A stretch of 64,000 nucleotides of DNA from Pocillopora damicornis (taxonomy: Eukaryota): NCBI RefSeq assembly GCF_003704095.1, contig NW_020847638.1:1-64000 (forward strand), given 5' to 3'. Numbering within the stretch: the first letter of the stretch is position 1; each line of letters opens with the position of its first letter. The notes under the pieces were generated by a model. It was not told where the DNA came from. It searched no databases and saw only the letters and a program-made list of their open reading frames with translations. A program made the translations under genes and the position numbers. This document shows positions 62,607 through 63,481 of the stretch, in pieces.

Positions 62607-63373
62607 TCAGTTATTCCGAACACAATCCGTATGAATTATCTTTGTCTTTATCTCACAATTCGAAAAAGTAAACAATTTATATACCTTTTGGCATCCCTGC
62701 TTACAGACTGGAATTTTGAAAAACTTGCTGCAAATAACAATTGCTTTGTCTCGGTTTTTAATACAATTATTTCCTGGATTTCGAGCATGTCTGGAATGTC
62801 CAAACGAATTTTCTTTAATTTCAACCTTTCCGACTGAGTTTTTACCTCGAGTTGAAAGTTCTTCTAAGTCAGGCTTGTGAGTTTCATTTTGTTCCAACCA
62901 ATCTACGTCTTTGCGGGTGTCTAGGCCATCAGATTGAGAGCTTTCTTGTTCTATCAGAAGCCAGTCAATATCGACCGTATCATTTTTTTGAAGGATGGAA
63001 GGTTGCAAAGGGTTTGTAGGTCGTGCCTCTGTTTCCCCGCCAGATTGTAGCATTATGAACATGGCAAAGTGTATAAAAATGATGGAAACGATACGTTCAC
63101 GGCCCTGCGAAGAGATACGAATGCGTCATTATAAATTTTTGTCCTACTATTACGGAGCTTTTCTTTGAAAAAGTGTCAATTAAATATGTATATGCATGAG
63201 AAGAACTCGCTAATTTACCGAAGCATACAATAAAAATGTAGCTTAAAGATTCTTAAAAAGAGGAAATTTTTTCACTTTTTTATTTTTTAACGAAACGATG
63301 TTAAAACCATTATAAGGCAAAGAGAATCTATAAATAAGTTCTGTGAAATTACCTGTGAAATTCCAAATTTCAT
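62607..63373 (-). CDS. Predicted secreted prepro-peptide (172 aa) with a C-terminal cationic 6-cysteine domain
   Basis: Exon 63373-63353 (MKFGISQ, cag|gtaat) plus exon 63104-62607 (ttcgcag|GRERIVSIIFIHFAMFIMLQSGGETEA...), phase 0 and in frame with ORF 62607-63062. Hydrophobic signal, acidic pro-region, RHAR site, 57-aa Cys-rich tail; AATAAA on - at 62376-62371. Confidence 0.75.
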
Positions 63374-63447
63374 TCTGATTTTTATCGTCGTCCTTTAGTT
63401 AGTACTTGATGCTCTTCTTGTTGGTTGCTAGTGAGGAGATGAATATT

Positions 63448-63481
63448 GACTGAAGACGATTGCTCATCGTCTTCTTATATA
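63448..63481 (-). promoter_or_regulatory. TATA box + initiator of the secreted peptide gene
   Basis: Minus-strand TATATAA at 63481-63475 and Inr-like TCAGTC with A at 63451, i.e. TATA at -30. Confidence 0.7.

Follow-up and report, generated by a model that had tools for sequence, protein, structure and literature searches.

To our knowledge, corals have so far yielded few known cytokines or growth factors. Sclerostin and the DAN-family proteins bind and dampen signalling and have a fingertip disulfide, and the coral antimicrobial peptide (AMP) damicornin has an acidic pro-piece. Two-disulfide IL-17 types (T1B and T1C) and a cnidarian type (T3) have been described (Chen et al. 2024, PMC11087794), and damicornin, AmAMP1 and digitiferin all carry ShK domains according to PMC12496222.

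The gene reported here lies in the window, the whole 64,000-nucleotide stretch of Pocillopora damicornis DNA that was analysed, and as judged from its sequence it is a member of a stony-coral family of predicted secreted precursors that has no name, called the window family below. It shares with the IL-17 family predicted secretion and a predicted two-finger fold, IL-17A heading the structural matches of the model in a near tie with other signalling proteins. Two of the three knot disulfides are predicted to be kept, as 1-4 and 2-5, which would be the T1C pattern, the 3-residue spacing before Cys4 is common to the T3-like IL-17 genes of the same genome, and IL-17-like genes adjoin some of the window-family paralogs. 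However, the core is about 45 residues compared with about 65-85 in IL-17, CP-W and RxP motifs and a Pfam IL17 match are absent, and the family has, unlike IL-17, a long acidic pro-region with an RxxR site. Compared with the neurotrophins, Spaetzle and Trunk/PTTH, the window family lacks the terminal C-x-C, has four rather than six knot Cys, is heel-less and shows no sequence similarity. The basic two-finger fold is also predicted to be common to the DAN family and sclerostin, whose fingertip disulfide is echoed by the one predicted in the window copy, but the window family lacks the eight-membered knot ring, is far shorter and has no sequence match to them. Damicornin, AmAMP1 and digitiferin are secreted, cationic and Cys-containing like the window family, whereas digitiferin has no pro-region. 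No ShK match was found in the members scanned and the predicted fold is all-beta, which places the window protein outside the ShK-type coral AMPs; identity with digitiferin was likewise rejected.

Gene structure and precursor

An earlier note on this DNA had proposed a hidden two-exon gene in which a 21-nt exon is spliced in frame, and this structure was borne out (Table 1). The coding part of exon 1 carries the ATG (63373-63353, minus strand, 7 codons) and is joined across a phase-0 intron to 165 open codons and a stop in exon 2 (63104-62607, minus strand). The exact 248-nt splice joint was found in 4/8 sequencing runs from four studies, all four of them labelled 'RNA?', meaning that their RNA status is guessed. 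One contig of the RNA run X10 is unspliced across the intron, and the contigs of X9, X14 and X16 stop short of it. Additionally, the 21-nt first exon with its GT donor was matched upstream of 8 of the 13 homologous copies compared. The window gene is thus real and spliced. Both elements of the promoter that had been proposed, a TATA box and an Inr-like TCAGTC, are present on the minus strand at the spacing claimed, but a start at the A of the latter is only plausible because the X2 contig runs to 63593, 110 nt beyond the TATA box; the 5' ends of three other contigs fall at 63405-63469. An NF-kB-like site near 63690-63700 was dismissed, since the homologs do not keep its GGG. A short interspersed repeat that is present in many unrelated transcripts lies at window 61655-61830.

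Table 1. Features of the window gene, in window coordinates
Feature	Position	Strand	Basis or remark
Upstream non-coding motif, candidate cis-element	63669..63695	-	kept in other corals' copies: L056 (both), L058, L060, L066-L068
Second conserved upstream motif	63511..63528	-	matched in 9/13 copies
TATA box TATATAAG	63474..63481	-	sequence; 30 nt before Inr-like A at 63451
Exon 1 (5' UTR and 7 coding codons)	63353..63451	-	transcript contigs; conservation in homologous copies
Intron, 248 nt, GT-AG, phase 0	63105..63352	-	skipped in runs X1, X2, X3, X15
Predicted signal peptide, exon 2 part (34 aa in all)	63024..63104	-	hydropathy; conserved xEA-RP boundary in family
Pro-region, 81 aa, mildly acidic, ends in RHAR	62781..63023	-	sequence
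RHAR, predicted convertase site	62781-62792	-	sequence; RxxR-type sites in family
Predicted mature domain, 57 aa	62610..62780	-	core Cys 6, 26, 30, 53; lineage-specific Cys 17, 42
AATAAA poly(A) signal	62371..62376	-	transcript contig ends at 62351-62401

The reading of the product as a secreted precursor with a convertase-type site is supported by the conserved signal-peptide boundary, by RHAR and by the N-terminus, whose hydropathy peaks at about 2.6 over 11 residues and which ends in T-E-A; a signal peptide is predicted from hydropathy and family conservation. A site of the form RxxR, KR or RR lies within 14 aa before Cys1 in 45 of 51 family rows. Cystine-knot growth factors are also secreted and often convertase-processed, and cleavage here is predicted. 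On recount the RHAR site, the 57-aa mature part, its charges (9 K, 2 R, 3 D/E, net +8) and the spacing of its six Cys (10-8-3-11-10) all proved exact, whereas a pro-region described as D/E-rich has only a mild acidic excess (16 D/E compared with 11 K/R). Across the family the mature domain has a median charge of +7, and 36 of 46 pro-regions are net acidic. A positive, amphipathic mature peptide behind an acidic pro-piece is the layout of cationic beta-sheet AMPs, and an acidic pro-piece before a cationic tail had been taken as a pointer to an AMP or toxin. The charges of this layout are present, but they do not decide function because neurotrophin-type precursors likewise combine an acidic pro-piece and a basic, Cys-rich tail.

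The window family and its evolution

In addition to the window's own cluster, word-seeded searches brought up 50 related ones. P0008 and P0010 were dropped as repeat-driven false matches. All named members are corals, namely Oculina patagonica (two adjacent locus tags), Desmophyllum pertusum, Porites evermanni and Pocillopora damicornis; Stylophora pistillata has a more distant type. All are annotated as hypothetical or uncharacterized. A separate family unrelated to damicornin had been suspected, and this agrees with the finding of no ShK match at E<=1 in 14/14 members scanned; no defensin-type match was found, and Pfam gave only chance-level RINGv and Toxin_6 matches. Neither the precursor nor a typical mature domain had a usable match in the ESM Atlas, and a PDB sequence search returned only cathepsin B loops (E 0.3-0.8). 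Full-text literature searching, which covered neither subscription journals nor most supplements (e.g. single-cell atlases) and could miss other gene ids, found no description of the family.

The six-Cys spacing did not hold as a defining feature. The family core has four Cys, complete in 46/50 clusters (the other four are truncated), and 37 of the 46 have exactly C-x18-C-x3-C-x20-C, the remainder being small variants. The two extra Cys occur in 0/50 clusters outside the window's own and in 15/15 listed members of that cluster, where Cys17 replaces a conserved Tyr (38/41) and Cys42 a conserved Gly (39/41). A tree of 47 precursors groups the window protein with two four-Cys proteins (support 95/93) on a long branch, 0.74 compared with about 0.33 for its sisters, and this nesting indicates from sequence that the Cys pair is a recent gain in the window lineage.

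The genome of P. damicornis has further members: three close full-core paralogs, in one of which the upstream part is out of frame, two copies broken by gaps, and a single distant paralog. The distant paralog (L031:1279-1833, contig C3699) has an RTRR site and an acidic-to-neutral core of C-x18-C-x3-C-x21-C, and its ortholog cluster includes Stylophora LOC111339483. Family members are duplicated in tandem in several corals, and one other coral has a tandem pair of four-Cys copies 4 kb upstream of its ortholog (71% identity) of the window's GPCR gene at 57745-58722. Order and orientation are the same as in the window, and therefore the window gene is the positional ortholog of these copies.

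Several neighbours of the family were also noted. The GPCR forms a tandem orphan pair with window 53951-54757 (both minus), and linkage of the pair to the family is kept in L056/L057. Window 41581-43065 (-), 20 kb away, encodes a rhodopsin-type GPCR exon with an apparent leucine-rich ectodomain end, LGR-like by eye; LGRs bind cystine-knot hormones, and this linkage is only a lead. A TRAF-type MATH-domain exon (window 6130-7206, +) lies within about 55 kb of the gene and a TIR-domain exon (L011:7404-7847, C4273:81404-81847) within about 18 kb. Unnamed secreted precursors with an acidic pro-region and a Cys-rich tail are found near the window gene (L012:735-1226, C4273 about 85 kb, no Pfam match) and near the distant paralog (L051:9090-9509, C3699 about 22 kb). 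A second unnamed secreted Cys-rich family without a Pfam match alternates in tandem with the paralogs on C3135 (L013:3977-4324 and L014:4395-4673, minus). By eye, its C-x14-C-x10-C stretch looks like the second finger of the window protein, and profile comparison for kinship was negative.

In each of the 36 non-window pairs, which compare distant members, conservation is higher in the mature core than in the pro-region, as would be expected for a receptor ligand. Between the window copy and its nearest relatives this pattern is reversed (pro-region 58%, mature part 40%), and by sequence the copy reads as a fast-evolved ortholog. Its dN/dS is unusable because synonymous sites are saturated against the compared loci. 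Among recent copies in other corals pN/pS exceeded 1 in the mature part in 35/78 pairs, one with nominal p<0.05, and reached about 2.5-5 in one subclade. This is suggestive of diversifying selection among recent copies, but the excess is not significant after correction for 78 tests. Such signs are as compatible with immune cytokines as with AMPs or toxins.

Predicted fold and a possible IL-17 link

The mature domain is predicted to be all-beta, its two fingers being antiparallel beta-hairpins that lie alongside each other as in cystine-knot growth factors, which form homo- or heterodimers. Structure comparison placed IL-17A at the top, tied within 1 Z with NGF, IL-25 and PTTH, and the matches are signalling proteins. 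Foldseek against the PDB gave nothing at E<=0.001. No beta-hairpin AMPs were among the structure matches, an absence that is no evidence against an AMP. The superfamily's six knot Cys, whose third disulfide pierces a ring formed by the other two, are not present, there being four invariant Cys and no terminal C-x-C, but known two-disulfide IL-17 types also lack the full set. We consider a two-finger cystine-knot growth-factor fold quite probable for the modelled domain. The IL-17 T1C-like disulfide mapping is tentative and is taken from alignment ends and the numbering of the knot Cys.

A T3-like IL-17 query gave 25 matches on eight contigs of the same genome: C3135:37751-99031, C4363, C3967, C147, C1554, C1689, C3410 and C4004 (set G000; L016, L018-L025, L034-L043). 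These compact genes lack knot Cys 5/6, several are broken or partial, and they are probably unannotated because all score below the Pfam IL17 cut-off. A profile of eight T3-like proteins had human IL-17A/F as its best PDB matches (E about 0.01). IL-17 proteins bind double-FN3/SEFIR receptors, and SEFIR-domain genes are present. On C3135 seven matches lie at 37-99 kb and a window-family paralog cluster at 133-148 kb, and two matches lie at distances of 1 and 5 kb from the paralog on C4363. About 0.25% of the genome is within 35 kb of an IL-17-like match, a rough after-the-fact count in which C3135 and C4363 are possibly one locus. However, the window family matched IL-17-like proteins neither by the PF06083 profile nor significantly in profile-profile comparison, so that no sequence kinship with the linked genes was detected, and no IL-17-like gene lies next to the conserved window locus. 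Common descent from IL-17 is accordingly offered only as a hypothesis, and the protein is not filed as IL-17.

Proposed function of the released domain

The product had been proposed as a candidate AMP, toxin or ligand, and of these the predicted growth-factor fold favours a ligand. We regard it as the most likely reading, at about even odds, that the precursor is secreted and cut at RHAR to give a small basic two-finger domain that acts on a host receptor. A furin-type enzyme would likely free the 57-residue domain, for which the fold of a cystine-knot growth factor in miniature is predicted: a 3-residue link replaces the heel between the two beta-hairpin fingers, and the two disulfides, Cys 6-30 and 26-53, correspond to knot positions 1-4 and 2-5, giving a knot-less version. 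It would likely signal between cells as an IL-17/neurotrophin-like ligand rather than as a simple antibiotic peptide, perhaps binding as a dimer to a surface receptor, for which an IL-17R/Torso-type FN3 protein is a first guess and an LGR or Toll-type receptor an alternative. Its basic surface may hold it on matrix or mucus glycans. In the window copy a Cys pair takes the place of the conserved Tyr-Asn at the tip of finger 1 and Gly at that of finger 2, and the pair likely staples the fingertips together, which would change the partner or harden the domain.

The strongest alternative, though an unlikely one, is that a cationic, aromatic, disulfide-braced beta domain, its fold recruited or convergent, is released into mucus and damages microbial membranes. 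The charges of the window copy and the family, the acidic pro-regions, the many Tyr, Phe and Ile on the strands, the tandem duplications, the pN/pS of one subclade and the accelerated change in the window copy all point that way. Against it stand the better conserved mature core, the loss of the pN/pS excess on correction, the low charge (+1 to +5) of the C3135/C4363 paralogs, several of which have no convertase site, the lack of an ShK or defensin-type match and structure matches that are signalling proteins. It is improbable that a monomeric two-finger protein dampens BMP, Wnt or IL-17 signalling without activating a receptor as DAN proteins and sclerostin might suggest, since no sequence match to DAN proteins was found and published cnidarian DAN/CKH proteins retain all six knot Cys (PMC4079206). 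Slightly less probable still is a hormone-like scaffold recruited as a venom or allelopathic toxin against prey, predators or competitors, most plausible for the six-Cys copy with its long branch, lost family-conserved surface residues and fixed Cys pair, but the toxin-family match is chance-level in 1/14 members and the family's motifs are absent from two supplementary files of a coral venom study (PMC12745922), which may not list sequences.

Returning to a receptor ligand, we tentatively propose, at somewhat less than even confidence, that stony corals have unrecognised minimal cystine-knot-fold cytokines with a 45-residue heel-less, knot-less core from IL-17/Trunk stock, smaller than the solved members among the matches listed, and that the window gene, recently re-tooled with an independently gained fingertip disulfide, may show a cytokine scaffold becoming a defence peptide. 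The family escapes sequence searches altogether, and its named members are all 'uncharacterized'. Should the domain prove to be an AMP, corals would have a defence scaffold of a new kind, different from the three ShK-type peptides known to date. Should the fold be correct, the family would show how far the cystine-knot growth-factor architecture can be reduced in nature and would give studies of coral immunity and development a candidate ligand small enough to synthesise, with IL-17-type, LGR and Toll-type proteins as candidate receptors.
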